Source: Jimgerdemannia flammicorona (Eukaryota). From it: DNA of 35,074 nt. The number at the start of each line of letters is the position of its first letter. The first letter of the stretch is position 1. The translations under genes and the position numbers were made by a program. This document shows positions 1 to 32,322 of the stretch, in pieces. Under the pieces are notes generated by a model that searched no databases, was not told the DNA's origin, and saw only the letters and a program-made list of their open reading frames with translations. Location: positions 1 through 35,074 of the forward strand of contig RBNJ01000262.1 in the NCBI GenBank assembly GCA_003990765.1, read 5' to 3'.

Positions 1-15
1 AAAAAAAAAAAAAAC

Positions 16-53
<38 letters not shown>
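1..53. repeat. poly-A homopolymer tract (one CC interruption)
   Basis: Direct read of the window start. Origin (retro-tail, microsatellite or assembly artefact) cannot be determined. Confidence 0.9.
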
Positions 54-57
<4 letters not shown>

Positions 58-2390: not shown

Positions 2391-2449
2391 TTATGCATGT
2401 GATTTAATAAAAAAGTACAATCAATGTAACATATCTATCATTGTCAGTA

Positions 2450-4140: not shown

Positions 4141-4556
4141 GGATAGCAGTAAATTGCTATAAAAGAGGTAGCAGCACATTTGGAAAAGACATAGCAGCAA
4201 GGTTGTGGCTGATTCAAAATAACATCATAATTTTATTATTAGTATTTGGTAACAGCATGATCTTTTGAGTGTTAGAATTATTTTGATTCAGAAATAATTC
4301 TCATACTATATAATTCAAAATAATGTTATTTTGAACCAAACAGGTCCTTAATAATATAGAAATTTTTAATAATTTTTAAATAAAATTATTTAGTTATCAA
4401 TCAATAGTATTTTGAGTTATAAGTATATAAAGAATCTGAACTTTATTTTCCTCTAATGCATTAATGGTGGGGTAATTATAAAGCGTGAGGTGTCATGTGA
4501 CAACGTGACGATTTGGTAATCCCTGTTTACTTCCCCCCTTGACTTTGAGAATAACC

Positions 4557-6559: not shown

Positions 6560-9500
6560 GGTGGGGGGAAATTTTATTGAATGGGTTACTGGTCATTTGA
6601 TAGGTTGTTTCATTTCAATTTATTTATTTTTTTGTACTTGTACGTGCTCGTCCAGCTTTTTCGCCAGAGTCGTTGCGTTTCTTCTCTTGATCGAACACCT
6701 CTTTCCCCACACCTCCCTCCAACGGCAGCAAACCTCCATCACTATGGATCCCTCGACCCCTTATATAAACATTGTGTCAGCTGCGCCTATGTGTTCCTCC
6801 ATAGCTTCTTTTCTTCTTTATGTACATATGTTAACAATGACAGGATGTTCATCGTTCTTGACGCTCCTGGTTTTATTTTATTTTATTTTATTTTATTGGG
6901 AGATCGGTCGATATGGTCGTTGGACATTTCCGTCGGGATTTGCTGTTGGCGGGAACCTCGGTGAGGGAACGACGAGCAGCATGGAATGGGTTCCACTCTT
7001 CTATCCAGCAAATGTTAATCAAATAAGCAAATTAAACAGATTGGATCCATCTGAACATGGATGTGTCTGCATCGTCTCTTCAAGATTCATCTTAATTCAA
7101 TAAAAGACAAGCCGCTTCTCCCACTGTGCGGGTACGGCTGATTGTGGGTGTCGACAGTGGATGTTTATCGATTGCGCTTCCCGAAGACATGAAAAAAAGT
7201 CGAGGTTGTCGGCTAGGGTGCCGGCTCACCAGATTTACCGTCAGTAACACTTTCTGCCGAACTTTGATAAGCCCGCTCGCCGCATAACATTTTCTGGAAA
7301 AATCGAGTTTCACTAGTCCTAGACCGATTTATGCGTGCTGGGCTACATTTCAGATTCTGAAACGATCGGGTTGACGATATACAGCAGTGAAACTTGGATG
7401 GCACGCGCGTAGGAAAGCCAACGATTGGGTGGGTTCCTTGTGCGCACGAATTGAAACCGGCGTTGCGGATGTGGCGCTGCTGCTGAGCCTTGATTGTCGT
7501 GCCACCTTGCCCCGCGGGCTATCACCATCTCAGAGGGACCCCCAAAGCCGCGCCTCATACCCCTCGGTTGCTTTGTTCTTCTCGATAGCCTGCCTGGAAC
7601 AGCGATGTTATTGATGTCTTAATGTGGCCGTTTTCAATGGCTGGCTTCCTCAATTTGGGAAGACGAAATCTTTAGGGTGAAGCGAGGGGTTCGATCGAGT
7701 AGATGATTTTGGTCTCGCTTTGCTTTCTTTTAGCACGGTTGAAGCTCATAGCCAAGAATATAGTGCCCTTTATTTTATTATTATTATTTTCCTATGGAAA
7801 ACCTAAGAGTTTGTTTTACGTGGTCATAATAATAAGCTGAAAAAAAAAAAAAAAAAAAAGGAGGGAGGGAGGTCATTCTGGCTTGAGAATTTTCCTCGTA
7901 TGCGTGTGGTGATTGTTTGATTCAAACCTACACTCACATCTCTGAAACGAGGTTAGAGTTAAGCTTCACACTGTTCAGCAGAATATTTATCAAGCACGCT
8001 TGATTCCTTATTTCAGATCAAGGCCGCCATTTGCTAGCCACTGCGACTAATCCTTCTTCCGAGATGAAAGAAGCGAACGGGATCGGCTTACGATAGGTGA
8101 TAGGCACGCTTCGGAGAGTTAGCTAATCCTACTTGTCAGCTGACTTGACATCAGCACGTGAACGCGCGCTGCTTTACTATTTGTGACTGACGGCCCGACT
8201 GGTAAGTCCCTCGATTATGCCCATCCGTCGATACATGAGACGGAGGTGACGTTAGGGGATCTTTGTTTTCCTTCGTTCCGGCACTGCTGGGAATAGCGCA
8301 CGTCCACGGGGATTTGGTTTGTCAGGGGAATCAGAAGCATACAGACACTCTATCGCGGATTCATCATGGCACGGTCTTGCCCCTCACTGAAGATCATGAC
8401 CCAGATAAATTCGGACCCAGTAATGTGAGCATTCCTATGCCCCCAAGGATGACTCTCTTATGAACATTCCAATAGAGTCGCCAAACTCCGCAAATAGATT
8501 ATCATTTCCAGCCTGCTGGAATTTCGAGGGACAAATCGTTCATGTCATCGAACAATGTTCTTTCTTTCTTTCTCAGATCTTTGTCTCGCCATTATTGGAT
8601 GGACTATCCCTTTCATTTCCGCGTTCACGGATGTAGCAAATTCCCTCGACGCGGAAATCGCCTATATTATATTCCGCAGGTCCGTCGAGAACAGATTACG
8701 TGGTCATAATCAAGCGCGCGAAAATTTGTCTTCTGAAAAAGAAAGATTCTCTCCACACCAATTTCGCGGAACGACTATCCGTTGACGTACTCGCTGACTC
8801 CCTAAAATCGATCCGTGGTTGGAACAAAAAAGCAGCGAATAGGCTTCATGCATAGCTCATCAAGTCATCAACTCACTTCCTTCGCACGTCTCAAGCACCA
8901 ATCAAATACACGAAAGGCTGGTACACGTGGAAGTGGCCCCAAGGGGATCAATAGCCGAGATCTGCGTTTCTGTGGATCGTTCTCTGGCGGATCAACGAAA
9001 GGCCGTGAGAGAAGCTGATGATCTTTTCGAATGGCGTACGTGGGGTAGCGGGGGGGGGGGAATGGCTTTCGTGCTATGGTGCAGCTAACGGATGTCAGCA
9101 ATACTATTATAAAATTTATACAGTATTATAAATTTATATAGTGATCTCCTTTTTAAGAGTGGTCAAAATTTGGCGGAACAATAAAAAGTGCGTTCATAGA
9201 ATTATAACAAATCCATCAAACAATATTTCTATGATTTTATTTTTTGAATATCTTTTTCCTCATCACGTTCTATTCCTTCAAAATTTATGTAACTTTTGTG
9301 AGGTCGTACTATATACACGTGGGATCGGCGGGGGTTTTTCTGTGGATCATTCTCGTCGTTCCATTCTCGTGACCCTTCGAGCGGTGCATGCGGAACCGTC
9401 TGTCATCTCTGTGCATCAATTCCTGTTTGATGGAATAATCTTTAAGTGGCGGCCCGTGCGTTTGGAAAGTCTTTTCTTTCTTTCCCTTTAGTCTTTCCTC

Positions 9501-10116
9501 TTTTCCCTTTTCCCTTTCCATTCGTCATTTTCGGGGATTCTTCATTTTTCTCGATGTGGAGGGAAAAACATTTTTTTACGCGATCATTATTTTTAGAAAC
9601 GTTCTGCCGTCGCTAATTGGTTTATCCCCAACTGACTGACATCAGCGTGCACTGCGAACGTTGGTCCGTGTGAAGGGGGGACCTTCTTGCGTGAGCTGGG
9701 AGTTTCAGATAATGAGAGCCATTATGAAATTCCCGAGATTTCGAACGGTCGGTCCCGTGACACGCCGAACCACTCGATGTTCGATCCGTACAAGATTTAA
9801 GGTTTTCTCTATCGGGACAGCCAGCTACATATCCGTCCAAAATCTTGGTTTAATTGTTTTTGTAATTTCCGGGTACGATGAACGCAAATAGCTCATAACC
9901 ACAAACAGGGTCATAATCGATCAGCTGCGCTATAAGTCTTACACAAGATCACCATCGCAGGGTCGGCACAAGGTGAAATAGTTACATAGCTACTTATCAG
10001 TGTTTATAGTTCGTATGTATGTACACGCTACCCTCTCGCTCGCGAGCCGTAACATGAAGATATAAACGTAAAAAAAAAAAAAACATGGTGAATTCACAGG
10101 AAACATGGCGCCAAGC

Positions 10117-10778
10117 TCAGGACCCAATAGGCTGGTTATCACTGTCGTCATTCGTGCGGCTAAGCTTTTCATTCGCGGGGCTGTACTCCAGAGGATTGGT
10201 ATCCTGAAGTCAGGGGAGAAGGAGAAGTTGACCATAATCGGAAGTACGAGTGTGCGGAATCGGCGAGAATTCTCAGTAAGTCGATCGATCTGGTTGTCGC
10301 ACGTATGACTATCGGTGGCTGATCCCATTTTTTTTTTTTTTTTTTTTGTTTTTTTTACAAGGATGGAAATTATCGCGCGTAATTTCTGCGTACCTGGGTG
10401 TCCTCAATTCTGCCTTGGGATCCGTGGTGGCGGGATCGAACGCGGTTGGACTCTTCTCCACGTCCTCGACCGTTCCGGACAGTGTAGAGGTGCTGCCGTA
10501 CGGCGTATCGGCTTTCTTGCCGTCGGCGGTAGAGGCAGGTTCGCTAGAATTGACGGCATTCGACGTGGAACGAGTGTGGGTTTTACGGGTCTTCTCGGTA
10601 ACGGTGGTCATAGTGTTGAGGGTGGCAACAAACACTCCCGAATGTCGAACGGTCAGAAATGATCGCGTGGCTGGTTGCGGAACAGCCATGTTGGAGGGCA
10701 GTGCTGCATCCAGGACCGTTATGTTTGGGTTTGGGGATTCTTGATGCAGCGGGCGAGGCGGAGGGCGTTACGGTGCAT
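10117..10778 (-). CDS. Small conserved-hypothetical fungal protein, possibly mitochondrial; apparent frameshifts
   Basis: ATG 10778 gives an Arg-rich start MHRNALRLARCIKNP. The ORF 10689-10394 ends SGTVEDVEKSPTAFDPATTDPKAE. After an intron GTACGC(10393)..TTCAG(10204), the last exon reads DTNPLEYSPANEKLSRTNDDSDNQPIGS*. The AFDP..T.P..E / NPLE.SPAN pair is recalled from an uncharacterised fungal family. Two frame corrections are needed to join the parts. Confidence 0.5.
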
Positions 10779-11267
10779 TGTGTGTTTGTTTTTTTTGGGG
10801 GGGTGAGGGGTGAATTGGATTTGTCGTTTAAGGGGGGTTGAATCGGAGAAGATCCAAGTTGAGATTTATGGGATGGAAATTACGCCCAGGACTTGCCGTG
10901 TTAGTGCAGGCGGGCGGGCGTAGATGCAGGCATGTGACGGAGCTCGCTCCGGCCTAGCCACCTTTTTCGGGAGGCAGCTGCACCCGCAGGGCCCAGAAAG
11001 GCCAGGACTGCCCGTGGTGGCGCGACCGGCACGCCACGAGAAGGCTTCGACGCATAGGCACAGGGTATTAGGTAGGCCAAGAATATCTTGTGTCATATAT
11101 TAAAAGAGCAAGGGCTATGGGAGCTATTTTTATAAACAGCGTCGTGGGTGACTGCCCAATCCTCGACCCCTTTATGAACGAGCAACAAGAAAACAAAAGC
11201 TCTCCCCCGCTAGACCCACCCCATCCCATCCCTATCGACATACCATCACCGCCCACCCACAACCATA

Positions 11268-12975
11268 ATGCTCAACGAGCTACCAGGACAACCCTCCTTT
11301 CTTTCCCCACTCTACACTCCGCGTCCCTCGGACGGCACGGTCCGACGCCCCCCCCGTGTCTCGCCAAAGTTGTTCGACGACGACACCGACACCACCTTCC
11401 GCCGGCGGCGAGACGACGACGACGACGACGACGCGCTTCAGATCATGACCCTCGGCAAGTCCGGCGAAGGCAAGAGCAGCCTGCTGAACGCGATCCTTGG
11501 TGACGACGCATTTCAGGCCAAGATATCTGTATCGGTAAGTAATAGTCCATACCTCATGAACACGGGCTGCGGCATATCTGATGCCGAATAAAATATATAC
11601 GTGTGTACAGTGCCCTTTCTGTCTTTCGCTCGATCCAGCTGAACCAAAATAAATCGCTTGTTTTATCCCCCACCACAGGAGGTGACGAAGGCTGTGGAGT
11701 CACACAGTGGCCGTTGGCTTGGACGACCGGAACATACAGCGGTCAAGTGCGTTGACACACCCACACTCGCCGGTCAGCTGGGCGACCGGGCGAGAGTGGC
11801 GCAGATCGGTAACCTTTTGGAGGCTTGTTTGAATGGTGTGGACGCGTTTCTAATTGTGACCAAAGTCACGCACTATCGGTAGGTACTTGCGTATTTTTGA
11901 ATTAGTATATATTATATTTATCGGAGAAGGGAGAAATTCCTTTTTACGGTTAATAAACAAGTATTTTTTATTTATAGCTTGAGCTGCTTTGAGGATTTGT
12001 TATTATTACTCACTCCAACGAATACTGTCTTGCATGTTTATTTATTAATCCTTCAGGTACGACTCCTCCATCCACGCAACCCTAAAAGTCTACGAGACGA
12101 TCCTCAACCCTTCTTTTTGGCAAAATGCGATCCTAGTGTTTTCCCACGCTGACCCAGAAACCGCCACCTCCTGGTCCGACTCACAACGTCACTTTGACGA
12201 CTTTGCCGCACAAATCGCCAAACAATTCAAGCTCACGACTCCCCCGCCTATCTGCTTCGCCTCGGACCGCCGCAGCTTTGGCAAGACTTCCGCAACGGCG
12301 GGCGGGATCGGCAACATGGGCGCACGGGGCGAGATCATCGTCCACGACGGCACACGGATATGCACGATAGAACCCCCAGCGCGTACGCTCTACGAGAGGA
12401 TCCGCGAGTTTCACACCCGCCCCTACTTCCCCACACATCTCACGCAGTACCTCCATCAGAATCCGCGCCGGACTGTCGCCGATTTCGCCGAGAGGCTCAT
12501 GACGGCTGTCGAGCAGCTCGACGAGTTCCGCGAAGTCGACCGCAGCGCTCATAAGAGATCCCTCTCGGCAGCTTTGTCGCCACGCCCCTCCCTATCTTCC
12601 CAGATCTACGGCATGGGCTCTAACCCTAGCATGGCGTCGTCCATTGCGTCGTTGTCCGGTGCGTCGTCCGGTGCGTCGTCCGCTACGTCGTCCGCTACGA
12701 CGTCTGTTATATCGTCCTCTGCAAAGTGCCGCGTGCCTTGGGAGGGCAGGAACAGGCCGAGAGCCGTTAGCGCAGAGTCGTCGCCTACCCCGTCAGAGAG
12801 TGGGAGCGATCATGGCGGTGGGGGAGGCAGCGGAAGAGTCACTATGACGGCTATGGCGGGGTTGCTGCAGTTGCCCAACAGGCTGAGGCGGAGTAGTTCC
12901 GCCGTTACGTTAAGGGCGAAGGGATTGAAGAGATCTAGTACGTACCTGCCGGCGTCGACGTCGGTCGGTGTGTAG
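11268..12975 (+). CDS. AIG1/GIMAP-like (TRAFAC septin/Toc-related) GTPase, copy 1, ~461 aa, with Ser-rich C-tail; exons 11268-11534, 11679-11878, 12057-12975
   Basis: P-loop LGKSGEGKSSLLNAILG, G2 EVT, G3-like VDTPT, conserved box NGVDAFLIV...R, G4 AILVFSHAD. Canonical GT-AG introns keep the frame. Confidence 0.85.
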
Positions 12976-13500
12976 CGGAAAATGATGGGTGTCGAGGGCG
13001 TGGGTGTGTTGATTTTCTGGATATGGCGCATCTCCGTTGTGTGGCGTAATACTTCACTTCCGATCGGTGGTTGCAATCTCTTTTGTATCCATATTTCTTT
13101 TTTTTTTTTTTTTTTTTTTTTTTTTGTGCAGCCACGATCGGAGGGATGGCCACAACGGGACGGGTAAAATCTTTCCCCTCCCGACCATTTCTCGCTCACA
13201 CGTTGTGTGCTCAAGTGAGAAATGGATGCAGTATGTAATATATAGATAGTAGGGAGAAACCCGAGGAGGACGACATACGTGACCCGCCAAATCGGTCACT
13301 AGCATGGTTACCCTTATTTTAGTACCTGCGGGTGTTACCGACAGGTGGGTTCTGTATCGTTTTTGTATGTCGTCGGTCCATACATAGCTGGGCGGGCCCA
13401 TAGGTGGGCGGGGTTAGGGGAGGGGTAGGTGGGGTGGGGTGGGTGGATAGGTGAGGAAGAAATGTTCAATGTGATTGTAGGTAATAATGTAATTTTCGGT

Positions 13501-13556
13501 TCGATGGGCTCGATGGGCTCGATGGGCTCGATGGGCTCGATGGGCTCGATGGGCTC
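13501..13556. repeat. Perfect 9-bp tandem repeat (TCGATGGGC)x6
   Basis: Directly visible, ~200 bp upstream of the second GTPase ATG. Confidence 0.95.
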
Positions 13557-13750
13557 AATCAGGATAATTAATAATGCGAATGAATGAATGGGTACAAGAC
13601 TTAACAAGTACCATCCCGAATCGCCCCCTGCCTGAATGGCTGCTGTCCCCACGTGCCACCGCTCCTTCTACAAAAATCCGGAGGCTCAGCCCCAAGTCAA
13701 GTCACATCCCGCCCCTTACACCACTCCCCTCAGCATTACAGCCCCTCGCC

Positions 13751-14397
13751 ATGTCTGGCGCTACCTACTACAACTACTACCAGAACGACCCCAATACCCT
13801 TGTTCTGTCCGTCATGGGCGCCATGGGACGGGGAAAGTCCAGCCTACTCAACTCCATCGCTGGCGAGCAGATCTACCAAACTGGCCGCGCTGTCGAGGTG
13901 AGTACTGCGGCGCGTTGTCATTGGTAGCGCCACGTCGATTGAGGCCGGAGTTGAGGTGACAGTGGCGTGCGCATTTGCCGTATGACTGGCCGCAGCAGCT
14001 ATCGGTAGCGCGTACACTCGACGAGCGGACTTGGGCGAGGAGCTCCGTGGGTGGATCAATCTTGGTTGTTGAACACGGCGCGTGTGAGAGATCGCGGTAG
14101 CGAATGACAGCAAAGGTGACTCCTGGTCTAGCCTACTCACGCATCTCTCCATTGCTCTCTCCCTCATCCAGCCCATTACCACGCACGTCGAGTCGGTCAT
14201 CCGACCATGGCGCAACCCGCCCATCTCGCGCTTCTGCCACCTCATCGACACGCCCGGAATGTGCGACTCATCCGTGAGAGACAAGAAGAATGTGCAAGAG
14301 ATGGTTAAGTACTTCAAGAGCCTGTCGTACGGCGTGAGCGCGTTTATTCTAGTATTCAATGTGGAGGATGTCAGGTAGGTCGGGGGGGGGGTGGGGG

Positions 14398-14428
<31 letters not shown>

Positions 14429-15111
14429 ACGCATACGCGAGCTTAATCGTTGTAGATAATTCTTCAGCTCCCACTACGAGGGTAGCATGTAATTCTCCGT
14501 GGCTAAATAATTATCACGCTCACCACACTCTCTCGCACGTGAAACACCCCAGGCTCGACGCCTACACGCAAAACATGCTTCACCTCTTTGAACGCCTCCT
14601 AGGCCGAGACTTTTGGCGCTACGTGATCATTGTCTTCACGCACGTAGACGAGGACAACCGCGACCTTCTCGATGATAACATCGATGTCCTCTCCGACCCT
14701 ACGGACGGCTTCGCGGCAGAGCTTGGGCGGATCTTCGCTCTTGACCCGGCCACGGTCAAGCTCCCAACCATCTTCTTGACGACTAAGAATGTCAAGTACT
14801 CGACATACGCGCACCAGTGCCTGCAGGACCTTTACGACTCCATTCGCGTGCGCGAGGAGCAAGCCCGCGGCAAGAAGTTTTCCTGCCACTGGTTCCGCCA
14901 AATCCTTGCCACACCCTCTGACGAGGAGAAGACAGGATTTATCGTCGCTTCCGTCAGAGAAGCCGTCGGCGCGCTCAGGAACATATTTAGCAGTGGCGGT
15001 GGCGGCGGCAGCGGCGGATCATCCCAAGCGAGGACTGGGTACTCCGGGAGGGGCTCACAGCCGAGGGAGGAGAGGGGGGGTAGTGGAGGTGGATGGTGCC
15101 CGATTCAGTGA
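13751..15111 (+). CDS. AIG1/GIMAP-like GTPase, copy 2, ~302 aa, with C-terminal CaaX (CPIQ); exons 13751-13897, 14172-14374, 14553-15111
   Basis: MGAMGRGKSSLLNSIAG, G2 PITT, G3 LIDTPGMCDS, YGVSAFILVFN...RLD, G4 VIIVFTHVD, Gly-rich linker then CPIQ*. GT-AG introns. Confidence 0.9.
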
Positions 15112-16499
15112 GAGGTTGGGAGGCGTGGGCGTGTTGGAAGACGGCGGGATTTCCCTTGCCGGTGGAGAATTCTTTTTTTTCTTTTTACTTTGTTCCTTTG
15201 TCGGGTTGTGCAGTTGGACCAGGTGGGAAGTCAAATGTGTGTATACTCTGCTTGTTTTTTCTTCTCTTTTGACCCTCTTGTTTCTTCCGCGGGCTTGCCC
15301 GTGTACATCATTCCAGACTGTACCCTTCGCCGGTATCCAGCTACCTTCTCTTAAAAACTTCAACATGTTGTCTTTTCGGACCAGCGTGCTTGGCTATCCC
15401 TGTGCTTGGCTATCCCTTTTCCCCTATCGGATTTAATTGTGGTGGTCCTATCCTCGCTTCGCCCGTCATCTACATTGTCTATCCTTTCCCCCATCCACCT
15501 CCACCATCCACCTCCGTATCGCTTACACTCACCTCCCTTTTCACCCCTGCACTGTAATGCGTCTCGCTCGAGCGCCGCAACCACGTCGACGGCGCAGGCT
15601 GCAACATCGTTCGCGTTCCATAGAGAAGAAGGAATTACGAAAAGGGGGGAATCAAGATTCCCGAAACGACGAAGATATCCGCCTCCAAATCCGACGCCTC
15701 GCGTTCTCCTCCTCCTCACGGTATGGCAGGTTAGGAGACTCTGAAGGGACGGTCGGTGTGTGTTGACTGTCAGTCGGGGATTATTATTATTATTATGGAG
15801 CAAGGGGCGGAGGAGGGGGGAAGTAGAATAGGGAACCGTTTGTTGTATGTGCCTTCCCTGTCGCGACGCTCAACATGGGTCCGTCCGGATCGCACTGGGA
15901 TCTGTGTTGAACCAACATAATGAGAGATTATAAGCAGCGAAAAAGTCCATTACATCTCGCATGCGCGCATGATAAACTCTTGGGCGAGGACCCGCGAAGA
16001 TCTCGAGGGTAGCCATATCGAAAAAGAGGCAGATGTGGGCGCGATGTAATTATGACATTACTGAGCCGCGCTTACTCATGTAGGGTTCCGCGTTGCGGTT
16101 TTTCTCGAGTACGAAGCTCGAAGATATGATACATCTCATACGTTAAGTACATGTGTACGTCATGTATGCGATGCGGTTTTATGGTGTATTATTACAAATG
16201 ACCACACTTGAACACTTTATAACCTTGGTTCGTGTCCAAAAAGAAGGCCTGTCGTTGCGAACATCTCCCTGATGCAGGATGAATCGAATCACGATGCATT
16301 ATCTATATTTTATTAATGTTCAATCAATTCCTTCCTATACAAAATACAAATCGAAGAGCGATGCGCGGCAACCCTCCCTCCCCACCCCCCCTCTTCCCTT
16401 CTCGTCTCTCGCTTACCTCCATCACCGAATCGTCCCCTCCATCTCCACTTTATTCACACAAGTCACACACTTGCACCTCGGCACAAACTTCTTGTCTAC

Positions 16500-16970
16500 T
16501 CATCTTACATGCACCGCAAGGCACGTATCACAAAACCTCCTGCTAATTGTCACGCCCGTCAGGCTGGACCCTGCCGGATCATGCTATCGATCGGGGAAAG
16601 GAAGTACATGGTCTCGAGTAGGACGGCGGGCCGTCGCGCAGAGCGACCGCGGTCCTTGCCGCATTTTTGCGGCCCATTTCATCGCTTGCCGGTGCAAGAA
16701 CCGGCATAAAGATGCCGCACGACTCGCAGGAAGCCCCCGCGTCGAGATAGGCCGCCATCGAGGTCGGGAGGAGGACGCGGATCTTGGCCAGGGTAAGGTC
16801 GAGGGCTGTGCTGGTGTGGGTCGACTTGGGACGCTGCCGAGCGTGGCGAAGGATAATCCCGGCGCAAGTGGCCTGCAAGCTTGGCGGGTAGCGAGTGGTT
16901 TGGAGGGAGACCCAGGCGCGGATGGGGTTCCAGTTAGAGGGATCTCGACACGGACAGGCCAACAAAAGTC
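16500..16970 (-). pseudogene. Truncated/frameshifted gene remnant resembling the Cys-rich C-terminus of LRR proteins
   Basis: NWNPI...PPSLQATCAGIIL...LPTSMAAYLDAGASCESCG, then in another frame TISRRFCDTCLAVHVR*. The 5' part is missing next to the TE block starting ~17.1 kb. Family resemblance is from memory only. Confidence 0.35.
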
Positions 16971-17126
16971 ACAGTTCAAGGATTTATATGAAAACACAGG
17001 TATTTATGACATCTACTTTTGGCCATATCGTATCATGAACAAAATGTCAAAGAAGAGAAGTTGAGCATGATTGTTATATATATTTCAATCAAAGCTGCAT
17101 TACCAGCCAAACTTGTTTTCACATAA

Positions 17127-17235: not shown

Positions 17236-18350
17236 ATGTCTCACACTTCAGAAAATTCTGCAGTCATTAAGGCAATAAGATTTTTGACCATACAAGCTAT
17301 AATATATGAAATCTATAATGATACAAAAGAGGACAAAGATAAGACTTATTATTATAATAATAGTAGCAGCAGAGATGATATCTATAACAGTAGTAACAAA
17401 TTCACAACCACTTTAAGCAAAAACCCCAACATCTTCTAACTGGACATATAATGTCCTTCTAAAGTACAATAATAAGAAATATAAAGAGATTCTATATATA
17501 AGTAGAGTTATCTTTAACAAATTAATTTCTGAGATAGAAAACTATACTGTATTTCAGAATAAGTCATCAAACTCTCAGACTCAAGTCTATATTCAAGTTA
17601 TTGTTCTGCTTAAAATCTTGATAGATTGATGATATATGTTGAACTGGTAGTTTTATTTGAAATATCTGAAAGCTCTATTGATATTTTCTATATATAGTTA
17701 ATTATAGCAATTATAGATAATCTTGGTAAAAAATATATACAGTAGTCTCAGAATGATAATTAATATTACAAAGTCTATGCTGAATTTGAATGTCTTGCTG
17801 AATTTCCCAGAGTTATTAGAGCAATTAACTGCACATATCCTATTTCAAAAGTCTCTAAAAAGTACAAAATAGTATACTAGTTAAAAAAAATAAGATATTT
17901 ACTTAATGTTTAAGAAACTATCAATCATCTTAGCTTCTTTACTAGTTATTATATTGGGTGGTCTAAATAGAAGAATATTTAATAAGTTAATTATTTTATA
18001 ATAATATAAAATACTTATATATAATAATTATATTATTAGAGATAATAGATATAAACCTTATACATTATTTCTAATCTATCTATATCTAAAACCAAAGCTA
18101 TCAAAAGATTGTCAAAGAATATTCAATAAGAAACTATCAAAAACAAGAGTGATAGTTAAATTACCTTTAGCTACTTAAAGATAAAATATATTAATTACAA
18201 AATAGTTTATTACTCAATATTGAGCTAATAATTACCTTTATTATATAAGTAAGATTTTCACATTTAATAGGTCTTTAAAACAAAGATATTTCAAAAGCTG
18301 TAGATCTTATTTAAACTACTTTTATTTTCTATAATTTTATTCAAATCACT
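17236..18350 (+). pseudogene. Second, heavily decayed Harbinger (HARBI1-like) DDE transposase
   Basis: FQNKSSNSQTQVYIQVIVLL, EFPRVIRAINCTYP (=GFP.VIGAIDGTH), FFTSYYIGWS, IIRDNRY (=GDSGY), FNKKLSKTRVIV, TFSYLK, FYNFI. Many stops. Confidence 0.7.
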
Positions 18351-18568
18351 AGTAATAGAGATGAAACAAAAATATAGATAATAAGAATATAAATAAAGAT
18401 AAGAATGAAAATATAGAAAAGAAAGATAAGAGCAAAAATAAGCAAAGAAGTAGAAAAGTGAAGGTATAAAATTCTCAGCTATATTATTATTAGTTTTTAT
18501 TCTTACTTTTTCTTTATATTAATTGACAGTTAGTTTTTAATAATCTTAATTATAAAGATCAAGATATT

Positions 18569-18906
18569 GCAGAGGAGGAAGAAGGCTCAGCGGGAGCCAA
18601 GGGAGTGAACCCAGAGCCAGTGTCAAAGCGAACAGAAGACATGTGGAAGAGCATGTATAAGGGGGATGAACAAAGAACGTAACCGAAAATGCATCAGCCA
18701 TTTATTGCCACGTAAAAACGTGGTCCTTATATACAAAATACGACATCCCAAAAGGGAGGATACGCCACAACTCGGGGCAAACTGAATTAGGAACCACATG
18801 ACTGCCGGAGATAGGCGGAGATAAAGGGGGAGCCAATCCCAGTTGCAGGATAAAAATCACAAACAAACACAAACAAAACAAATCCAAATCGAGATTAAAA
18901 AACATC
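18569..18906 (-). repeat. Inverted pseudo-LTR arm (338 bp), reverse complement of 19060-19397
   Basis: Aligned by eye; differences seen are transitions, mostly at CpG. Confidence 0.95.
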
Positions 18907-19395
18907 CTTGCCCCCTCCGGGGTCTCACGCTCACTCCGGGGTCTCGGCCTTACTCCGCTCCCCTCTGCTGCCTTCGGCCCCTCGCTTCGCTCGGGCTCAC
19001 TGCGGCTCGCTCCGTTTCGGCCTCACCCCTCGCTCGCACTCACCCCTCCGGGGTCTGCAGATGTTTTTTAATCTTGATTTGGATTTGTTTTGTTTGTGTT
19101 TGTTTGTGATTTTTATCCTGCAACTGGGATTGGCTCCCCCTTTATCTCCGCCTATCTCCGGCGGTCATGTGGTTCCTAATTCGGTTTGCCCCGAGTTGTG
19201 GCACATCCTCCCTTTTGGGATGTCGTATTTTGTATATAAGGACTGCGTTTTTATGTGGCAATAAACGGCTGATGTATTTTTGATTACATTCTTTGTTCGT
19301 CCCCCTTATACATGCTCTTCCACATGTCTTCCATTCGCTTTGACACTGGCTCTGGGTTCGCTCCCTTGGCTCCCGCTGGGCCTTCTTCCTCCTCT
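18893..19395 (+). repeat. 5' pseudo-LTR (503 bp)
   Basis: Direct repeat of 22330-22832. Includes the GC-rich hairpin cassette, TATATAAG (19233), AATAAA (19260) and the first ~24 codons of ORF1. Confidence 0.95.
19233..19265 (+). promoter_or_regulatory. Candidate TATA box (TATATAAG) and AATAAA within the pseudo-LTR
   Basis: Both motifs are present in all three repeat copies, ~90 and ~60 nt upstream of the ORF1 ATG. Function inferred. Confidence 0.45.
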
Positions 19396-20320
19396 GCTGT
19401 ACCGCCTGCCCTCGGGGCCTCCGTCCTCATCGACGAGCTCATGGATGAGGTACATACTTCCTCCTCCCCCTCCCCCTGCCTTCACCCCCGCCACTGTCTC
19501 CTTCGAGACCTACATCTCTTCTGCCATCCTTTCCCTCCCCCTGGACCTTCGTCCTTCTGGTCGTCCGCTCCTCTCTCAGTTCCGGTCGGTTCTTGCCCTC
19601 TCCGCCAAGGAGGCTCGTCTCCGTCATGATGTCGACGTCATCGCTCCGCCTGCCGTCCGCTATTCCATTCTCCCCGAGGCCTGCCACCAAGCCCTCTCCA
19701 AAGAGGTCCGTGCCGCCACTGCCACCGCCAAGCTTACTGCCGCTGATGCCGCCGCTGCTTCCACCACCACTGCTCCTCTGCCTACCTCCCCCGAGGTTTC
19801 GGTCTCCAAGGCCATCCGCGCCAAAGCTCGTGCTGCTGCTCGTGCTGAGGTTTATTCCTTCGCCACTGCCGCCGCCAAGGCCCCCTCCAAGACCCCCACC
19901 AAGACCCCCACCAAGCCCAACCAGGCTTTGTCGGCCTCTTCCTGGTCCCCCTCCCCTGCCAAGGCTTCCTCCTCCATTCCCCCTGCCCCCAAGCATGGCC
20001 GCCAACTTGGTTCTCGCCCCGTCGGGGCCTGGCCTTGTGCTGTCTGCTCCGGTCGCCTCCACCATGCCTACTGGCATCCGGCCAAGTCCGTCTGTCCTCA
20101 TGGTGGTGTTCCTCATGCTGCTGCCCCTTCGGCTGCTTGCTCGCCTTCAGCCTCCTCTGCTGGTTCTTCCTCCGCCTCTTCTCCCTGTGCCCCTGAATGT
20201 AAGGGCTGCACGAAAGCCTGTGGCTGCAAGGTCTGGCACTCTGATGGGGTGTGCTCTCATTCGTCGAGTTCGCCACCTTCAAAAAAAGTCAGAGGGAAGG
20301 GGAAGGCCTCCTGCTCTTAA
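19324..20320 (+). CDS. PLE ORF1: Ala/Pro/Ser-rich, basic, with C-terminal Cys/His clusters (putative Zn/nucleic-acid binding) and NLS-like PPSKKVRGKGK
   Basis: Long open frame 19280-20320. The likely start ATG 19324 (MSSIRFDTGSGFAP...LIDELMDEV) is in another frame, implying a frameshift near 19455. Motifs CAVCSGRLHHAYWH..VCPH and CAPECKGCTKACGCKVWH..VCSH. Confidence 0.65.
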
Positions 20321-22335
20321 ACTTCCCCCTAGCATGGTTCTCCCCCGGTGTCCCCGTCCCTTCTCGGATTCCGTCGTCACTTCTGGTGCGCCCTGAGTGG
20401 TTCCTCATATTGTCCCCCCTTTGCCTTTCCCAGTTGCTTGTCCCAAATTTTCGAGTTTACTCTTCTCTTAGAACACTTTTGTCTCTTCCTTTTTCTTCGG
20501 CTGACTGCCCCCTTTCTCCCCTTCAAGTCTTTGCCTTATTCTTGGGTCCTCGCTTTGTTTTTCCTGCAACTCCCTCACAATTCTCCTTCACCGATCCGGC
20601 TCGTCTAACACGTTTTCATCGTGCTCTTGACCTTGCCATTTTCTTTCAAGATCGCGGTGAGATGCCCTCTCGCTATTTTGTTCCTAGCAATTGGGTCCCC
20701 CCTCCCAATGTCTCTTCACACTGCGTATTCCTCGACATGGCTTGCTCACTGTCCATTCCTGGATGAGCTCGCTCTTGCTTGGTTTCGGACTGTGCCGTGC
20801 ATACCGCGCTTAAATCGGTCAAGCAATTGCCTATGCACTTGCTCACAGTCACTGATAAGAATCAGGGTTTTGCACTTATTCCTAAGTCGCTCTACCTTGA
20901 TGGCCTTTCTGCCCTCCTTCGAGCCACGGCTTACGAGCCTAGTGCTCTTGGATTGGATGAGGTTCTCACTCTTCTTCAGGTTTCTCTGGCTCACACTAGA
21001 TCACTTTCGGATTCCCCATTCGCGAACCCTGTTTTTAACTTCTTCCAGGACTCTTTGTCCTCCCCGGATATTTCTCTTCTGGTTTTCTATGCTCTTCCTA
21101 AAGTTCATAAGCCTATTTTGGCTTGGCGTCCTATTACGGCTGCTTACAGTTCTCCTACTACCGAGATTTCGAAGTGGTTATCCCGCTTCTTTCTCTCCTG
21201 GATGGCTCTCTTACAACACCATCTTGGGCCTGAGTATACTATTCTTCGCGATACTCAGGAGCTCGCCCTTCTCTGCTCCACCATTGTGCCTGTTCATCAC
21301 TTTTCCCATTTGGCCTCTGGTGACTTCTCTTCCTTCTATACTGCTATTCGTTTTGATGAGATCGATGATTGCCTTCGCTTCTTGGGTTCCTTGGTTTTTC
21401 CTTTGGATTCCTCGGTTTCGCTGGCTTCTATTGTTGAGCTTACGCTTCTCGTCTGCAGCTCCAATTATTTTGAGTCGGCCCTTGGCTCCTTTCACCAGAC
21501 TTCTGATATTGCCATGGGTACGAATTGTGCCCCCACCCTTGCCAACCTCGTTGGCCTGGCCCACGAATTGCATACGTTACGTGATATTACTTCACCTCTT
21601 TCCATTGCATTCTGGGCTGGGGATATCTTCTTTCGCCGATACATTGATGACTTTATTGTCTTCGCTGTTGCTGGTGTTGATATCCCTAGTATGTTCCTGG
21701 GCGTCTACCCTCTCCACCATTCTATTACCTGGGTGTGTGGTATGACTAGTATTCTCTTTTTGGACCTTTCCATTTCTCTTTCTCCTTTCCGAACTGTTGT
21801 TTATTCTCGTTTTCCCCGTTCCCAACAGTTCCCTGACTTCTTGTCCAACCATCCTTGTCACACTCTTCTTGAATGTGTTTGGGGTGAGGCTCATCGTCTT
21901 GCACTATGCTGCTCCCGTTGTTCGGATTGGGTGTCTGCTGTTCGGGTTCTTGGCAACTTCGTAGTCCATCGTCGTGCCTACCCTATTTCTATCGTTCGCG
22001 ATCTGCTTGCTTCTGTTGAATGGTCTGTTGTTCGCTCTACCCTTCTCTCTCCTCTTTATCTCCCCTCCCTTCCCTCTCTCCCCCCTTACCCTCTCCGTAC
22101 CCCCTCTTCTTTCCCACCCCCGATTCTCGTTATATCATTTGATCATGCTCGCTGGGTCGCTCAATGCCCTGATACCGTCCTGTGCTCTTCTCTTTCACAC
22201 CATGGACTTTCATCTCTTTCCCGACGCCCTCTGATTGCTCATTTGCATCTTCCTTCTGTTTCTTCTTCAATCCATCGCTCTCGTTTTGCATTTTCGTCAC
22301 CTTCTGGTGCCTCCGGTTCTGCCGGAGAGGATTAA
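20251..22335 (+). CDS. Penelope-type reverse transcriptase (ORF2), no GIY-YIG domain, one in-frame TGA at 20764-20766
   Basis: ORFs 20251-20766 and 20779-22335 share a frame. PLE motifs: LFLGPRFV, SNWVPP, TDKNQG, FYALPKVHK..AWRPI..SPT, GDFSSFYTAI, Q..IAMGTNCAPTLANL, RYIDD, FLDL, SNHP, and linker P.IAH..LPS..HRS, followed by a stop. Confidence 0.92.
20281..20330 (+). promoter_or_regulatory. Candidate -1 programmed ribosomal frameshift signal
   Basis: A-AAA-AAA is in the correct ORF1 phase (TCA AAA AAA), followed by a stem GGGGAAG (20299-20305) / CTTCCCC (20322-20328). ORF2 is -1 relative to ORF1 and has no ATG in the overlap. Confidence 0.6.
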
Positions 22336-22832
22336 AAAACATCCTTGCCCCCTCCGGGGTCTCACACTCGCTCTGGGGTCTCAGCCTTACTCCGCTCCCC
22401 TCCGCTGCCTTCGGCCCCTCGCTTCGCTCAGGCTCGCTGCGGCTCGCTCCATTTCGGCCTCACCCCTCACTCGCGCTCACCCCTCTGGGGTCTGCGGATG
22501 TTTTTTAATCTCGATTTGGATTTGTTTTGTTTGTGTTTGTTTGTGATTTTTATCCTGCAACTGAGATTGTCTCCCCCTTTATCTCTGCCTATCTCCGGCG
22601 GTCATGTGGTTTCTAATTCGGTTTGCCCTGAGTTGTGGTGCATCCTCCCTTTTGGGATATCGTATTTTGTATATAAGGACCGCATTTTTACGTGGCAATA
22701 AACGGCTGATGCATTTTCGGTTACATTCTTTGTTCGTCCCCCTTATACACACTCTTCCATATATCTTCCGTTTGCTTTGACACTGGCTCTGGGTTCGCTC
22801 CCTTGGCTCCCGCTGGGCCTTCTTCCTCCTCT
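22330..22832 (+). repeat. 3' pseudo-LTR (503 bp)
   Basis: Direct repeat of 18893-19395. The RT stop codon (22333-22335) lies within its first stem arm. Confidence 0.95.
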
Positions 22833-23649
22833 ATTTTTACTTTGAAGTAAGTGATCACTACTATTCAAGGTAGTGAAAGAGTTAGAATTATAATTATAAT
22901 TAGTAGTATATAGACTACTACTATGAAGATAGATATTTTTATAGTTATTAAATTATTTATAACTTAGAAAAATCAGCTAAATTAGTAAACTAACTTGAAA
23001 GTTTTTGATATATACATATTATCTGTAACTTTCTATATTCTATATATATTTTTCATTTTTAATTATCAGTATAGTCATATGATATATAAGCTGTAATATA
23101 TTGTAAATTCTATTCAAGTAGAGAATATAGAGCCTATAGTAAAGAAAAAGTAAGTTAAAGAGGACTAATTTAAATACAATGAGCTGAATCAGATAGAAAT
23201 AAGATATAGTGAGATAGTGTAAGATGAGGTAAAAGTAATAATATAAAATAATAGAGGTGATGAGATGAGATTGAAAAGTAGTAAAACAGACTACTAGATA
23301 ATTATTCTAAACTATCAAAGAATTATAAGCTATATTTTAAATATAAAACAAAATATATGAACTACTAGATCAGATAATTATTACTAAAACTATTATAGTA
23401 TTATTAACTAGTACTGGTCTTTTTTGTAGCTAAGAACCTTTAGTATCTAAATAATCTTGCTCAGTATTTTCTTTATACTTTTTCTAAAAAAAATATCATT
23501 ACTCAACTTTAGATCTAATGTATCTCTAAATATCTCTCTACTAGTTTTTCAAATACTATTAGTTTTTTTTAGAATATATTACTAGCTAGGTCCAGTAGTA
23601 ACAACTCTGTAAATATAATTAAAATCTATATCATTCTATTTATATTTAT

Positions 23650-25237
23650 TGTCACATAGTAGTTGCTGAGTCTTTCAAATATATCAGATTCTCTCCAAGA
23701 TATATCTCTTAGACTAATCTCAAGTTTGTTATAAGCAAGTTCTTATTGAAGTACCTTTCCAAGATCTTATAGTCCTCAAACTTCTTATCTTTAAAGTATC
23801 CTATTATTTCTTAGATTGTTTACATAGAATTGAGAGTAAGTGAACTGGAACTGACTTTATTTTAAAGGAAATAAGAAGGGTATTTATACAAAATATAATT
23901 CAATGATTGCTAAGTTATAAAGCTAAATATAAATTTCAATAACCAAACAAAATACTGGAATATAGAAAACTATAGTTGTCCATATAAATAGTTATATAAG
24001 TTTAGGATAGTAGTAGAATTTCAGTAGTATAGAAAAAGAATATCAGAAGAATTTTAAGTTACATAAGATCAGAATATCAGAAAAATAACAATTATATAGA
24101 AAAAGGATACTGGTAGAATCTGATGTTACTAAGAACTTAGAGCAGAAAGTTCAGAACTATAGAGGCTTTATCTTTATCACTATTAAGACTAGAGATTAGA
24201 GATAGGATGTCTTTGAAGAAGATGAGGTCTGTAAATATTTTGTCTATTTTGCATACTTTACATATCTCATATATGTCATGCAGGATGATGTCATCACTAA
24301 TAATATTATCACATTCAGTAGCAGTGAGAACAAAGAGGTCTGGGGCTCTCCAATCTATGATATTCTCTTCTACAAAATAAGAAATAAATGTAGGGTCTTA
24401 GAGAGATCTAACCTAGATACTGGGGCCTTGGAATTCTGAGATCAATTATTGTAGAAATTGATCTGGGTTGTTCTGGAAGATGGGATACCAGAAGTCTTCT
24501 ACTTCATTACTATTGAGGGTGATAGTAGACTGAGTCTCTGTGGCCACTATGGTCTCCAGTACATTAGTATAGCAGGCAGACAGTTTCTTGAAGTCTAAGA
24601 TTCTAGTATACTCTAAGTTGGAGATTAATCATAGTGCATGCCAGAAGATCTGATAAATCTTCTTTACTATCCTTATTTTATATATATCCATGGAGATAGC
24701 ATCTTGAATCTCCTGAAGACTGGCTTGAGGAAACTTCTGACAGAAGAGGTTTCTTATTTCATACTTTTGCTATATCTAGAGATATTCAGTAGTGATGGTG
24801 ATCCTTGTTTCCATTTCATAGTAATAGAGGATATAATGATAGGGGTTACCAGTATCTAGGTTGATGTTAGGAGTCCTTCTTGTATAGGTCCCTATGACTC
24901 TTCTGATGTCTTGGAACATCTTATCCTAGACTGAGGGGTCTTGGTGATTTCTGGATCTTAAGGTTTGGCAAGTGGTAGGCATTTTGTTTATAGTAAGTCT
25001 TTAGAACTATGTATTTCTGTGAGCTTTATTTGGATTGCTACTACTATAGTTTCTTGATCCTTCTTTTATATTTCTCAAGATGTCTGTCTTGTAGTCATAA
25101 TGACTCATGGTTGGTCATTATTACTTATCTTATAGCTCAGATGAGTTATGCTATATAATCTTCTTGTACTCTGATCTGGTAGTATAAGGAAAGGCTGTCT
25201 TCTGTACTGATATCATTATTCTGAGGTCACTATTACA
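23650..25237 (-). mobile_element. Solo LTR copy A of a Gypsy family (~1.59 kb)
   Basis: In element orientation TGTAATAG...GTGACA; 4-bp flanks TTAT/TTGT; homologous to copies B-D. Confidence 0.8.
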
Positions 25238-25313
25238 TTGTTTTTATTAATAGTATTATATCAGTAATAATTTTTCTATTATATAAATAATATTTATTAG
25301 TTAATATATATAA

Positions 25314-26914
25314 TATAACAGTAATCTTAGAATAGTAATATTATCATAGAAGATAGCCTTTCCTTATAAGCTATCAATTAAAGTATAAGAAGATTATATA
25401 GCATAACTTATCCAAGCTATAAGATGAGCAATAATGACTAACTATGAGTCATGAAAACCATAAGATAGACATCTTAAGGAATATAAAAGAAGAACTAGAA
25501 AACTACAGTAGTAGCAACTCTAATAAGACTTATAAAAACTTAAAATAGTTCAAAAGACTTATTATAAATAAAATGCCTATCACTTACTAAACTATAAGGT
25601 CCAGAAACTACCAAGGCTTCTCAGTCTAAGAAAGGATATTCCAAGACATCAGAAGAGCTATGAGGATCTGCACTAGAAGGATTTCTAGTCTCAATCTGGG
25701 TACTAGTGACTCTTATTACTTTACTCTCTACTACTATAAAATAGAGACAAGGATCACTACTACTATTGAATATCTCTAGATATAGCAGAAATATGAAATA
25801 GGAAATCTCCTCTACTGAAAATTCTCTCAGGCCAGTTCCCAAGAGATACAAGATACTACCTCTATAGATATATATAAATTGAGAGTAGCTAAAAAGATCT
25901 ATTAGATCTTCAGATATACATCTTAGTCAATTCTCAACTTAAAGTATACCAAAGTCTCAGACTTCAAGAAATTATCAGCTTACTACAAAATATACTAGAA
26001 GCCATAGTGGCTACAGAAGCCCAATTTACTATTACTCTCAAAAGTGATGAGGTAGAAGAGTTCTGAAATCCCATCCTTGAGGACAATCCAGATCAATTCT
26101 TATAAGGATTAATCTCAGTATTCTAAGGTCTCAGTATCCAGATCAGATACCCTCAAGATTTCACCTTTTTTCCCTACTTTGTGAAGAAAAATATCATAGA
26201 TTAGAGAACTCCTGATCTCCTTTCCACCACCATCAAATATGATGATGTCATCAGCAATAATATCATCCTACTAATTGATATTTGTGAAATGAATGAAACA
26301 GAAATATTTACTGATCTTATTTTCTTTAAAGATATTCTGTCTCTGACCTCTAGTCTTAATGATAGTAATGAAGATAAAGTCCCCAGAATTCTAAATATTC
26401 TACTCTAATTTGTTTATATAACTATTTTTTTGAACACTTGAATATTCTGATATCTTGATCTCATATAACTATCAGAAATTATTTCAATATTCTGATCTTG
26501 TGCAACTGATTGTACAGGTACTTAAATTTATACTTATAATCTGATATTTCCTATATTCAAATATTTTATTTAGTTATTGAATTTTATATTTAGCTTTATA
26601 TCTTAGTAATTATTGAATTATATTCTATATAAATACCCCTCTTATTTCTTTTAAAATAAAGTTAGTATTAAAAACACTCAAGCATTCAAGTACTCAACTA
26701 TTCAAAAGTACAAAAGTTCTAGTCCTCTATTCAATTCTATGCAAGTAAATCCAAGAAACAATAGAACAGTTTAAAGATAAGAAGTTTGAAGACTATAAGA
26801 TCTTGAGAAAGTACTCCAATAGAACTTACTTATAAGAAACTTATAGTTGGTCTAAGAGATATATCTTGAAAAGAATCTGACATACTTGAAGAACTCAGTA
26901 CCTACTATATGACA
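25314..26914 (+). mobile_element. Solo LTR copy B (~1.6 kb)
   Basis: TATAACAG...ATGACA (decayed TGTAAC...GTGACA) with a perfect 4-bp TSD ATAA (25310-25313, 26915-26918). Confidence 0.82.
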
Positions 26915-27345
26915 ATAAATAAATATTATTAAAGAATTTTGAATCTTTTGATCTTATTCTCATATATCTTGAAATAATTCTTTAAGAGAAAAAAGTGTCT
27001 GTATAAAATCTCTATAGATATTATTTTACTTGATCTCAAAGATACATATAAATAAGTTGGTCATCATTACGTTTAGTTACTTTGAAATCAATATAACTAT
27101 ATTCTTTATCACTATTTACATATTGCTCTAGATATAACTCTATACTAGTAACTATTATTACTACTATTAGCAAGATACTACCAATAAATTGAGTATGAAT
27201 TATTTTATTTTTATGAGCACTTATTGTGATAAGCAAATAGTATAATATAGCTAGAGATGTAAACTTCTAGCATAGCATAGTTACTCATGACTACTATACT
27301 TATAATTAGTCAGGATACCAAATCAGAGTTATTTATCTATATTCT

Positions 27346-28270: not shown

Positions 28271-29173
28271 CAAATTGTATAAAGAAGTCCACCAAGATCA
28301 TTATGCTAAAAATTGTATACTTTTGGAGATCATTGTGCTATATAGAGATTGTCTACTACTCAAGAAAGAAACTGCTAAATTGCTAGATTATTCTATATAA
28401 GAAATTCTGTCATACTATACTAAATTATCTATTATATCAAATCACTACTATATCTAGTTCCAATAAGGAAATCAATACCATTGTATTCAGACTTGACTAT
28501 TATACTGCTAAATACTAAGAACCTCAGGAATTTTAGAATATTTTATTGCTTTTTGACAAAGTAACTAAAGGCTCAAGCCAAACTATATTAACCCCCAATC
28601 TTATAATTTATCTCTATTGAGCCAGGTACATATATTACACTATACTAAATCTACAATTTTTATCTAAAATAATAATTTAGAAATAATTAATTATATATAA
28701 AATAATACAATCTTATATAAAAGCAAAATATATATATCTTAATATTATTTATATAATGAGTAAAATTTTTATTTTTTTTTTATCAATTATTATAGTATAT
28801 ATAATATAATATATTAATAATAAATATAATATTTCTTCCAAAATAAAGAACTGATATTATAATATCAGTTAGCAGTAAATATACTCTACTTTATATCACA
28901 ATTATAAATATTATTAAAAATATAAATTTATATCCAAATTAAAAGTAAGTATATATTTAATATTATTAGTAATACTATTTTTTATCAAGAATATAGATAG
29001 GTGATTTCTCTTATTACTTAAAAATAAGTACTTCTTAACTAATTCTAAAAAATATAAAAGGATATATTATATATATATATAATGAGTATATATTTCTACT
29101 CTATATAAAATCTTTATTTTTTATTTAAGATATAAAATCTTTATTATTATCTAGAATATATATATATTATTAT

Positions 29174-32312: not shown

Positions 32313-32322
32313 TCTTCTTCCT
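32313..32322 (-). other. Polypurine tract (PPT)
   Basis: AGGAAGAAGA abuts the start of the 3' LTR. Confidence 0.65.

Follow-up and report, generated by a model that had tools for sequence, protein, structure and literature searches.

The genome of Jimgerdemannia flammicorona carries, within a stretch of 35,074 nucleotides (contig RBNJ01000262.1 of assembly GCA_003990765.1, positions 1 to 35,074; called the window below), an insertion of a Penelope-like element (PLE) whose pseudo-long terminal repeats (pseudo-LTRs, or pLTRs) begin with an unusual arrangement: a GC-rich cassette, the loop L, enclosed by the two halves of a short inverted repeat, H and H'. The upstream example, at 18893-19073, had drawn attention in an initial annotation as a possible new structured RNA or DNA signal. 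It is probable that this stretch is the head of the pLTR of an endonuclease-less PLE, and that the inverted repeat was the annealing or fold-back site at which an inverted copy became joined to the element. The finding is a pLTR-head palindrome of a known kind, interrupted by a long loop, in a fungal element that has neither an endonuclease nor a hammerhead ribozyme. Among the roles put forward in the annotation, the best supported is one in priming or second-strand joining.

The insertion is composed of three copies of pLTR sequence and a single coding body. From left to right, these are an inverted pLTR of 338 bp, a direct pLTR of 505 bp, the open reading frames (ORFs) and a second direct pLTR of 505 bp. 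The inverted copy (18569-18906, minus strand) is truncated at its 5' side, so that it consists of a tail and H', with its 3' end pointing left, outward. The other parts are on the plus strand. The upstream direct pLTR is made up of H (14 nt, 18893-18906), L (153 nt, 18907-19059) and H' with the tail (338 nt, 19060-19397, where H' occupies 19060-19073). The element body (19398-22329) holds an N-terminal Cys-rich ORF and a reverse transcriptase (RT) ORF, recognized by translation and homology. In the 3' pLTR, a 15-nt H (22330-22344) holds the last RT codon and the stop codon TAA, and is followed by a 151-nt L found by repeat search (22345-22495) and by H' and the tail (22496-22832), which form the right end of the insertion. 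The two outer arms of the upstream structure, 18569-18906 and 19060-19397, make up a 338-nt inverted repeat that is 95% complementary (94.7% by blastn), while 18893-19395 returns as a direct repeat at 22330-22832 (93.4% over 503 nt, comprising the cassette and the right arm). Much of what the annotation had described is borne out by this layout, including an enclosed stretch of ~153 nt (153 nt in the 5' copy and 151 nt between 15-nt arms in the 3' copy), the repetition of the cassette at 22330-22510, the RT stop codon beside the 3' cassette, and the assignment to a PLE pseudo-LTR, for which the direct and inverted repeats and the RT motifs speak. The 14-15-bp closing stem is also present, but at 18893-19073 it is merely the inner end of the 338-bp, 95% inverted repeat, which had been missed.

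The junctions between these copies are exact. The inverted pLTR, which is 167 bp shorter than the direct one, has its end precisely at H', and H is precisely where the direct upstream pLTR begins, such that the overlap between them is exactly the 14-nt H that both have in common. In the two direct pLTRs, L lies in the same, sense orientation. At their other ends, the three tail copies finish in the alignment at identical last bases (...CTTCTTCCTCCTCT), past which one copy enters the element body and two enter unrelated AT-rich DNA. The repeat search of the 35,074-nt window turned up no further copy of the pLTR or the cassette. The DNA on both sides of the insertion is AT-rich and unique, and no repeats of TTAGGG, which we take to be the telomere repeat unit, were found in the 35-kb window (searched as TTAGGGTTAGGG with at most one mismatch); this copy is internal rather than telomeric. 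As in the general PLE layout described in PMC8557442, the pLTRs here derive from a partial tandem, and the 5' side of the unit carries an inverted copy that is itself 5'-truncated.

The inverted repeat itself is intrinsic to the element, since the 3' copy stands alone next to the end of the ORF. There, the two 15-nt arms are 100% complementary and have 151 nt between them, and the RT-frame TAA (22333-22335) lies inside the left arm. In the 5' copy, by comparison, the 14-nt H and H' are the inner tip of the 338-bp repeat and enclose 153 nt. The sequence GATTAAAAAACATC is found at 18893-18906 and 22330-22343, with its reverse complement at 19060-19073 and 22497-22510, making four sites in the window (two per strand) against 0.08 expected, a number reached in 0 of 100 shuffles. 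The closing stem is predicted both in the minimum free energy (MFE) structure and in the centroid, whether the sense RNA, the minus-strand DNA or the whole 533-nt 3' untranslated region (UTR) is folded.

The copies appear to be of similar age. The two 181-nt cassettes differ at 12 positions, in each case by a transition at a CpG site. In an alignment of 336 columns, the three tails are pairwise 93.2-94.6% identical; 31 columns vary, and in 28 of them the departure from the majority is C>T or G>A. Between the 338-bp arms there are 18 differences in 338 positions, most of them transitions. Since the three tails are about equally diverged, the sequences fit a single insertion event from which all three copies would stem, with subsequent decay of CpG sites of the methylation type.

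The coding region identifies the element, as far as its sequence can tell, as a decayed PLE that lacks an endonuclease. The frame of the RT ORF runs from 20245 to 22335 on the plus strand, with an in-frame TGA at 20764-20766 and the terminal TAA at 22333-22335. Similarity to other RTs spans 20497-22293, and all 36 homologues map to this one locus, the best with 48% identity and the others with 30% or less. The translation contains the motifs DKN (...TVTDKNQGF...), LPKVHKP and RYIDDF, whereas the Pfam match to RVT_1 is weak (E 0.025, below the cut-off). A DKN/DKG motif upstream of the RT core is typical of PLE/TERT-type RTs, and the placement here is drawn from such motifs and from the homologues rather than from a tree. 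The only non-RT Pfam domain among the homologues is GIY-YIG, the endonuclease domain of PLEs, detected in two of the 36 (P0014 with 25.4 bits, above the cut-off, and P0012 with 21.9, just below it). For the 17 homologues of greater length (915-1433 aa), the precomputed domain column lists PF01541 in no case. In the ORF pieces of the window, no GIY-YIG domain was found at E<=0.1; the RT ORF ends ~12 residues past the end of its alignment to P0001, with no C-terminal endonuclease of this type. (A protein extension by read-through of the TAA was considered and rejected: the 121-codon open frame is meaningless, as with only 8 A in 153 nt the plus strand has no stop in any of its three frames across the cassette.)

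Several observations concern the 5' part of the coding region. The upstream pLTR contains TATATAAGG at 19233-19241, which is TATA-like, and AATAAA at 19260-19265, both being motif observations only, as well as two ATGs (19312 and 19324) that share the frame of the RT ORF. One metagenome contig does not have 3+1 bases at 19452/19456, and with these removed, the ATG frame of the pLTR would be continuous with the N-terminal ORF. That ORF ends at 20320 in frame 2 and overlaps the RT ORF (frame 1, open from 20245) by ~75 nt (20245-20320). An A7 run at 20281-20287 falls in the overlap and reads A_AAA_AAA in the frame of the upstream ORF, and both ORFs are joined by a -1 shift at this point. A metagenome contig over 20067-20492 has no gaps relative to the window, so the change of frame may be native, through a programmed -1 frameshift or slippage, rather than a product of decay. 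Two metagenome contigs read T for A at 20766, which abolishes the in-frame TGA; both this TGA and the additional bases at 19452/19456 count as defects of the present copy. The coding strand of 19000-23000 is pyrimidine-rich (GC skew -0.19 to -0.31, AT skew -0.38 to -0.47), and stop-free frames in this region carry little weight, since such a strand keeps all three plus frames open.

Related sequences also occur outside the window. One soil-metagenome run contains 12% of the sequence words, and no RNA run was among the listed runs that contain them. The soil run yields 190 contig pieces at 80-99% identity, with mainly transitions as differences. One of these contigs covers 22264-22467 with 37 differences and no gaps, bridging the end of the ORF, H and most of the cassette; a second spans 22136-22359; and a contig from a second run spans 19015-19182, which comprises cassette, H' and tail. 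The length of the cassette is kept in an 82%-identical metagenome contig. Judged by these sequences, the order ORF-H-L-H'-tail is a feature of the family. (An apparent contig joint between 18769 and 22641 on opposite strands was discarded, being merely a continuous tail that mapped onto two arms.) Pattern searches reached less far: with the alignment of the RT and P0001, 78 pattern stretches were matched in the metagenome contigs and none was confirmed; the RT alignment had no match in the viral contigs; and the 28-nt tail pattern had no match in either the metagenome or the viral contigs. In the prokaryotic genome contigs, one distant locus was found (L001, 24% identity to the RT of the window), on a contig of a bacterial metagenome-assembled genome. 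This locus has no GC-rich cassette after the stop codon and no Rfam match. Positions 1-3775 there contain a unit of 3,634 bp whose ends overlap by 141 bp, from a tandem or circular assembly, and encode a 685-aa PLE-like RT ORF; it is probably eukaryotic DNA that was mis-binned.

Is this an already described PLE motif? In part it is. According to PMC3846280, palindromes occur at the 5' ends of pLTRs and at the inverted junction, where they are interpreted as a self-priming site; a TATA box and the initial ORF codons lie within pLTRs; and other pLTRs have palindromes of 18 bp and 38 bp at their 5' ends. The closest counterparts are the Adineta vaga units Pen2a_Av, Pen2 and Pen3a, in which, as here, two direct pLTRs bracket the ORF and a shorter inverted pLTR lies on the 5' side (PMC3846280). 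The overlap between inverted and direct pLTR is a short palindrome in both cases, 15 bp in Pen2a_Av and 14 bp here, and in the A. vaga units described there, as here, the palindrome heads the pLTR on its 5' side, and the pLTR contains a TATA-like box and the initial ORF codons. On the other hand, the palindrome here, although it is equally the joint between inverted and direct pLTR, is interrupted by a ~152-nt asymmetric, GC-rich loop. The inverted pLTR is shorter by 167 bp, compared to 37 bp in an A. vaga unit; GIY-YIG, a hammerhead, a detectable target-site duplication and the 30-40-bp tail extension of those units (PMC3846280) are lacking; and the host is fungus-like rather than an animal.

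The Coprina and Athena elements, to judge by PMC8557442 and PMC13159263, are also RT-only PLEs without an endonuclease, and the host of Coprina is fungal as well; Coprina-1_Alen is reported to have two ORFs and direct terminal repeats. However, those elements reside at chromosome ends between telomeric repeats, and carry reverse-complement telomere repeats with adjacent hammerheads (PMC8557442, PMC13159263). The copy described here is set apart from them, by these features and not by an RT tree, in being internal, with no TTAGGG in 35 kb, no telomeric setting and no hammerhead.

How would the inverted copy have become joined at H and H'? In the mechanism that we favor, a sense RNA would be reverse-transcribed from two outward-facing 3' ends. 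The short complementary DNA (cDNA) primed on the left would copy the tail of the RNA and end in H, while the long cDNA primed on the right would copy the whole RNA, jump to the 3' end of a second RNA, and there copy the tail, H', L and H of the second pLTR, ending in H'. The two complementary, A/T-rich 3' ends of 14-15 nt could then anneal and prime each other's second strand, by which second-strand synthesis would be solved too. Alternatively, a single cDNA could snap back on itself at H/H'. Both routes yield the observed order of inverted tail, H, L, H', tail and body. The loop may slow the RT at the H'/L border, although this is a guess, as is the idea that the loop is the promoter-proximal, CpG-rich DNA of the pLTR, ~170 nt upstream of the TATA-like box.

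A similar joint is made by non-LTR retrotransposons. In twin priming by the L1 element and in the microhomology-mediated 5' joining of long interspersed nuclear elements (LINEs), cDNAs are primed from two target 3' ends and fused where they are complementary over a short distance; the second primer of L1 binds to an internal site of the same RNA, and the microhomologies span a few bases. As in L1, two primed cDNAs would be joined here to leave an inverted segment beside a direct one, but both arms start at the 3' end of the RNA, and the joint uses a built-in inverted repeat of 14-15 nt. The LINE microhomology model is cited in PMC3846280.

Several points weigh against joining at H/H'. The 1.5-kb flanks show no target-site duplication (15 nt is the longest direct match between them) and share no long repeat; for want of such a duplication, the two-ended priming picture has no footprint here. 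A simple snap-back, for its part, leaves unexplained why the inverted copy stops exactly at the tail end. Only one insertion was examined, and the joint at H/H' could be a single accident of microhomology. Recombination between the 338-bp arms could also have flipped the loop at a later time, which would void any argument from its polarity. The antisense strand of the loop folds better than expected (z -3 to -3.9, see below), a property left unexplained by a role in joining. Finally, fungal and protist PLEs deficient in the endonuclease are said in PMC3846280 not to share this organization. A more specific version, in which H-L-H' is a dedicated joining hairpin for integration of this endonuclease-less, hammerhead-less PLE into chromosome interiors, the loop stalling the RT and the A/T-rich arms annealing, is tentative at best.

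What, then, is the loop for? The least doubtful of the alternatives, still an unlikely one, is that the cassette acts at the level of DNA, as a CpG-dense promoter or enhancer block of the pLTR, while the inverted repeat that flanks it has no function of its own. The composition is suggestive in this respect. The 5' copy of L contains 8 A, 73 C, 36 G and 36 T, and its 153 nt hold 16 CpG as they stand and 21 after CpG restoration. With CpG restored, the observed/expected ratio is 1.09 in L versus 0.69-0.79 in the tails and the body, which makes L the most CpG-dense part of the element. Motifs recur within it, namely three CCGGGGTCT, five CTCGCT, eight CGG, three CCGG and a GCC-TTC-GGC, and a 19-nt unit is present in 2.3 tandem repeats at 18915-18957; the motifs listed in the initial annotation, including the three CCGGGGTCT and GCC-TTC-GGC, were all recovered. 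From the cassette it is ~170 nt downstream to TATATAAGG (19233) and ~250 nt to the ORF ATGs, and the pLTRs of PLEs are known to hold the promoter and the transcription start, according to PMC3846280 and PMC8557442. However, the cassette motifs were matched to no tested factor, and a promoter would leave the exact end of the inverted pLTR at H' unexplained. A scan with promoter and terminator models of the bacterial type returned small hairpins in the tail only, and such models are uninformative for a eukaryote. A promoter function is compatible with joining at H/H' and does not exclude it.

Somewhat less likely again is a functional sense RNA in the 3' UTR, either as a site of RT recognition or loading, as a signal for 3'-end processing, or as a self-cleaving ribozyme other than the hammerhead, as the initial annotation had suggested. 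The cassette directly follows the stop codon, where an RT would encounter it early in the RNA; every fold has a stable closing stem; and the cassette is free of gaps in the 82%-identical metagenome contig. Hammerheads, moreover, are reported in all PLE clades but Naiads and most Chlamys (PMC8557442), and are absent here: as already noted in the annotation, the hammerhead core CTGANGA was found in neither of the pLTRs on either strand, and the hammerhead known from PLE pLTRs is accordingly lacking in these two. In the sense orientation, the 181-nt RNA with its stem folds at -62.6 kcal/mol in the 5' copy and -59.8 kcal/mol in the 3' copy, with z -4.0 for both against dinucleotide shuffles. But this value owes much to the closing stem, because the interior without it (300 shuffles each) is ordinary, with z -0.49 in the 5' copy, +0.67 in the 3' copy and -0.48 after CpG restoration, and with 89, 230 and 81 of the 300 shuffles, respectively, folding as well. 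DNA parameters give z +0.5 to +0.9 for the interior of either strand. In the whole 533-nt 3' UTR, where the H/H' stem still forms, z is -0.83. The MFE structures have ensemble frequencies of only 0.0004-0.05, and the centroids retain little beyond the closing stem. The multi-hairpin interior described in the annotation is not exceptional in the sense RNA; for the most part, its mini-hairpins and rod come from CG, CCGG and GGCC units, which are self-complementary and set in a pyrimidine matrix, a composition that gives such pairs without design.

Database searches agree with this view of the interior. In the Rfam search of 18300-23100, no model, those of ribozymes included, matched the cassette even at E<=10, and nothing in the whole window reached the gathering score; two sub-threshold matches, NEAT1_2 (19.7 bits against 60) and snoR77Y (19.4 bits against 52), fell outside the cassette. 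ARAGORN found no tRNA-like structure. Thus, no support was obtained for a ribozyme or a defined fold of the sense RNA, and the GC-rich loop is probably not a defined RNA fold.

The antisense strand behaves differently. The 181-nt antisense RNA with its stem reaches -79.1 kcal/mol (z -6.4), and the minus-strand DNA has z -3.1. Without the stem, the antisense RNA is the only form of the interior whose fold is more stable than those of the shuffles, with z -3.16 in the 5' copy, -2.99 in the 3' copy and -3.87 after CpG restoration, and with only 2, 3 and 0 of 300 shuffles as good. The CpG-restored sequence, whose folding on both strands the annotation had proposed, is therefore ordinary in one orientation (sense z -0.48) and more stable than the shuffles in the other (antisense z -3.87). 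(A G-quadruplex on the minus strand of the cassette was considered, where there are five G4-5 runs, but these are spaced 13-48 nt.) It is conceivable that an antisense transcript would end at the head of the pLTR, in a run of U6 after the GC-rich rod, fold back through H/H' and prime its own reverse transcription, with a head-to-head repeat as the outcome; antisense self-priming is the model favored for animal Penelope elements in PMC3846280. We nevertheless consider this very improbable. The model predicts that the loop at the junction is antisense relative to the body, but the upstream loop is sense, and the orientation can be read directly because L is strongly asymmetric, C/T-rich on one strand and G/A-rich on the other. 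With the loop in the sense orientation in both copies, antisense self-priming is disfavored.

Least credible of all is that the structure is foreign to the retroelement, as a foldback element or miniature inverted-repeat transposable element beside the PLE or as an assembly artefact at a palindrome: 829 bp with terminal inverted repeats of 338 bp do resemble a foldback element, and the tandem and inverted structures of PLEs are known to trouble assemblies (PMC8557442), but the cassette and tail recur directly behind the RT stop codon, the pLTR carries an ORF ATG in the RT frame, independent metagenome contigs bridge both ORF-H-cassette and cassette-H'-tail, and the 18 differences in 338 positions between the arms, mostly transitions, are not expected from an assembly fold-back, a possibility that the divergence among the three tails (93.2-94.6% identity, mainly C>T or G>A) rules out.

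The remainder of the window contains other repeats. A 3.3-kb stretch at 23643-26921 is palindromic, matching its own reverse complement at 72.6%; 29115-32313 holds a related pair with 72-84% similarity to that stretch; and a further 273-bp stretch at 3163-3435 is self-complementary. These three palindromic regions are AT-rich and have no ORF of more than 110 aa except one at 29632-30228, which has no Pfam match; they may have arisen when another repeat family inserted earlier in the form of inverted dimers. On the left, a 13-kb block at 4000-17000 with ~43-59% GC stands out from a background of 22-34% GC and has many open frames on both strands, with no credible Pfam match in the 10 longest pieces tested.

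As a candidate for a new RNA or ribozyme, then, the cassette is weak, and its interest lies in what it may record about integration. The way in which the tandem and inverted repeats of PLEs come about is an unsolved question, as is the entry of endonuclease-less PLEs into the interior of chromosomes. Short, perfect palindromes at the junction cannot reveal which strand served as template, but an interrupted palindrome with an asymmetric loop can. If H and H' do join the inverted copy to the element, the loop would record the copied strand at every insertion, and would provide the first direct read-out that the head-to-head repeats of PLEs are made from sense templates, and not by antisense self-priming. 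Should the sense orientation hold across many copies, it would argue against antisense self-priming and for the joining of sense-templated cDNAs, and the animal-type pLTR architecture would extend to a fungal lineage that lacks both the endonuclease and the hammerhead.

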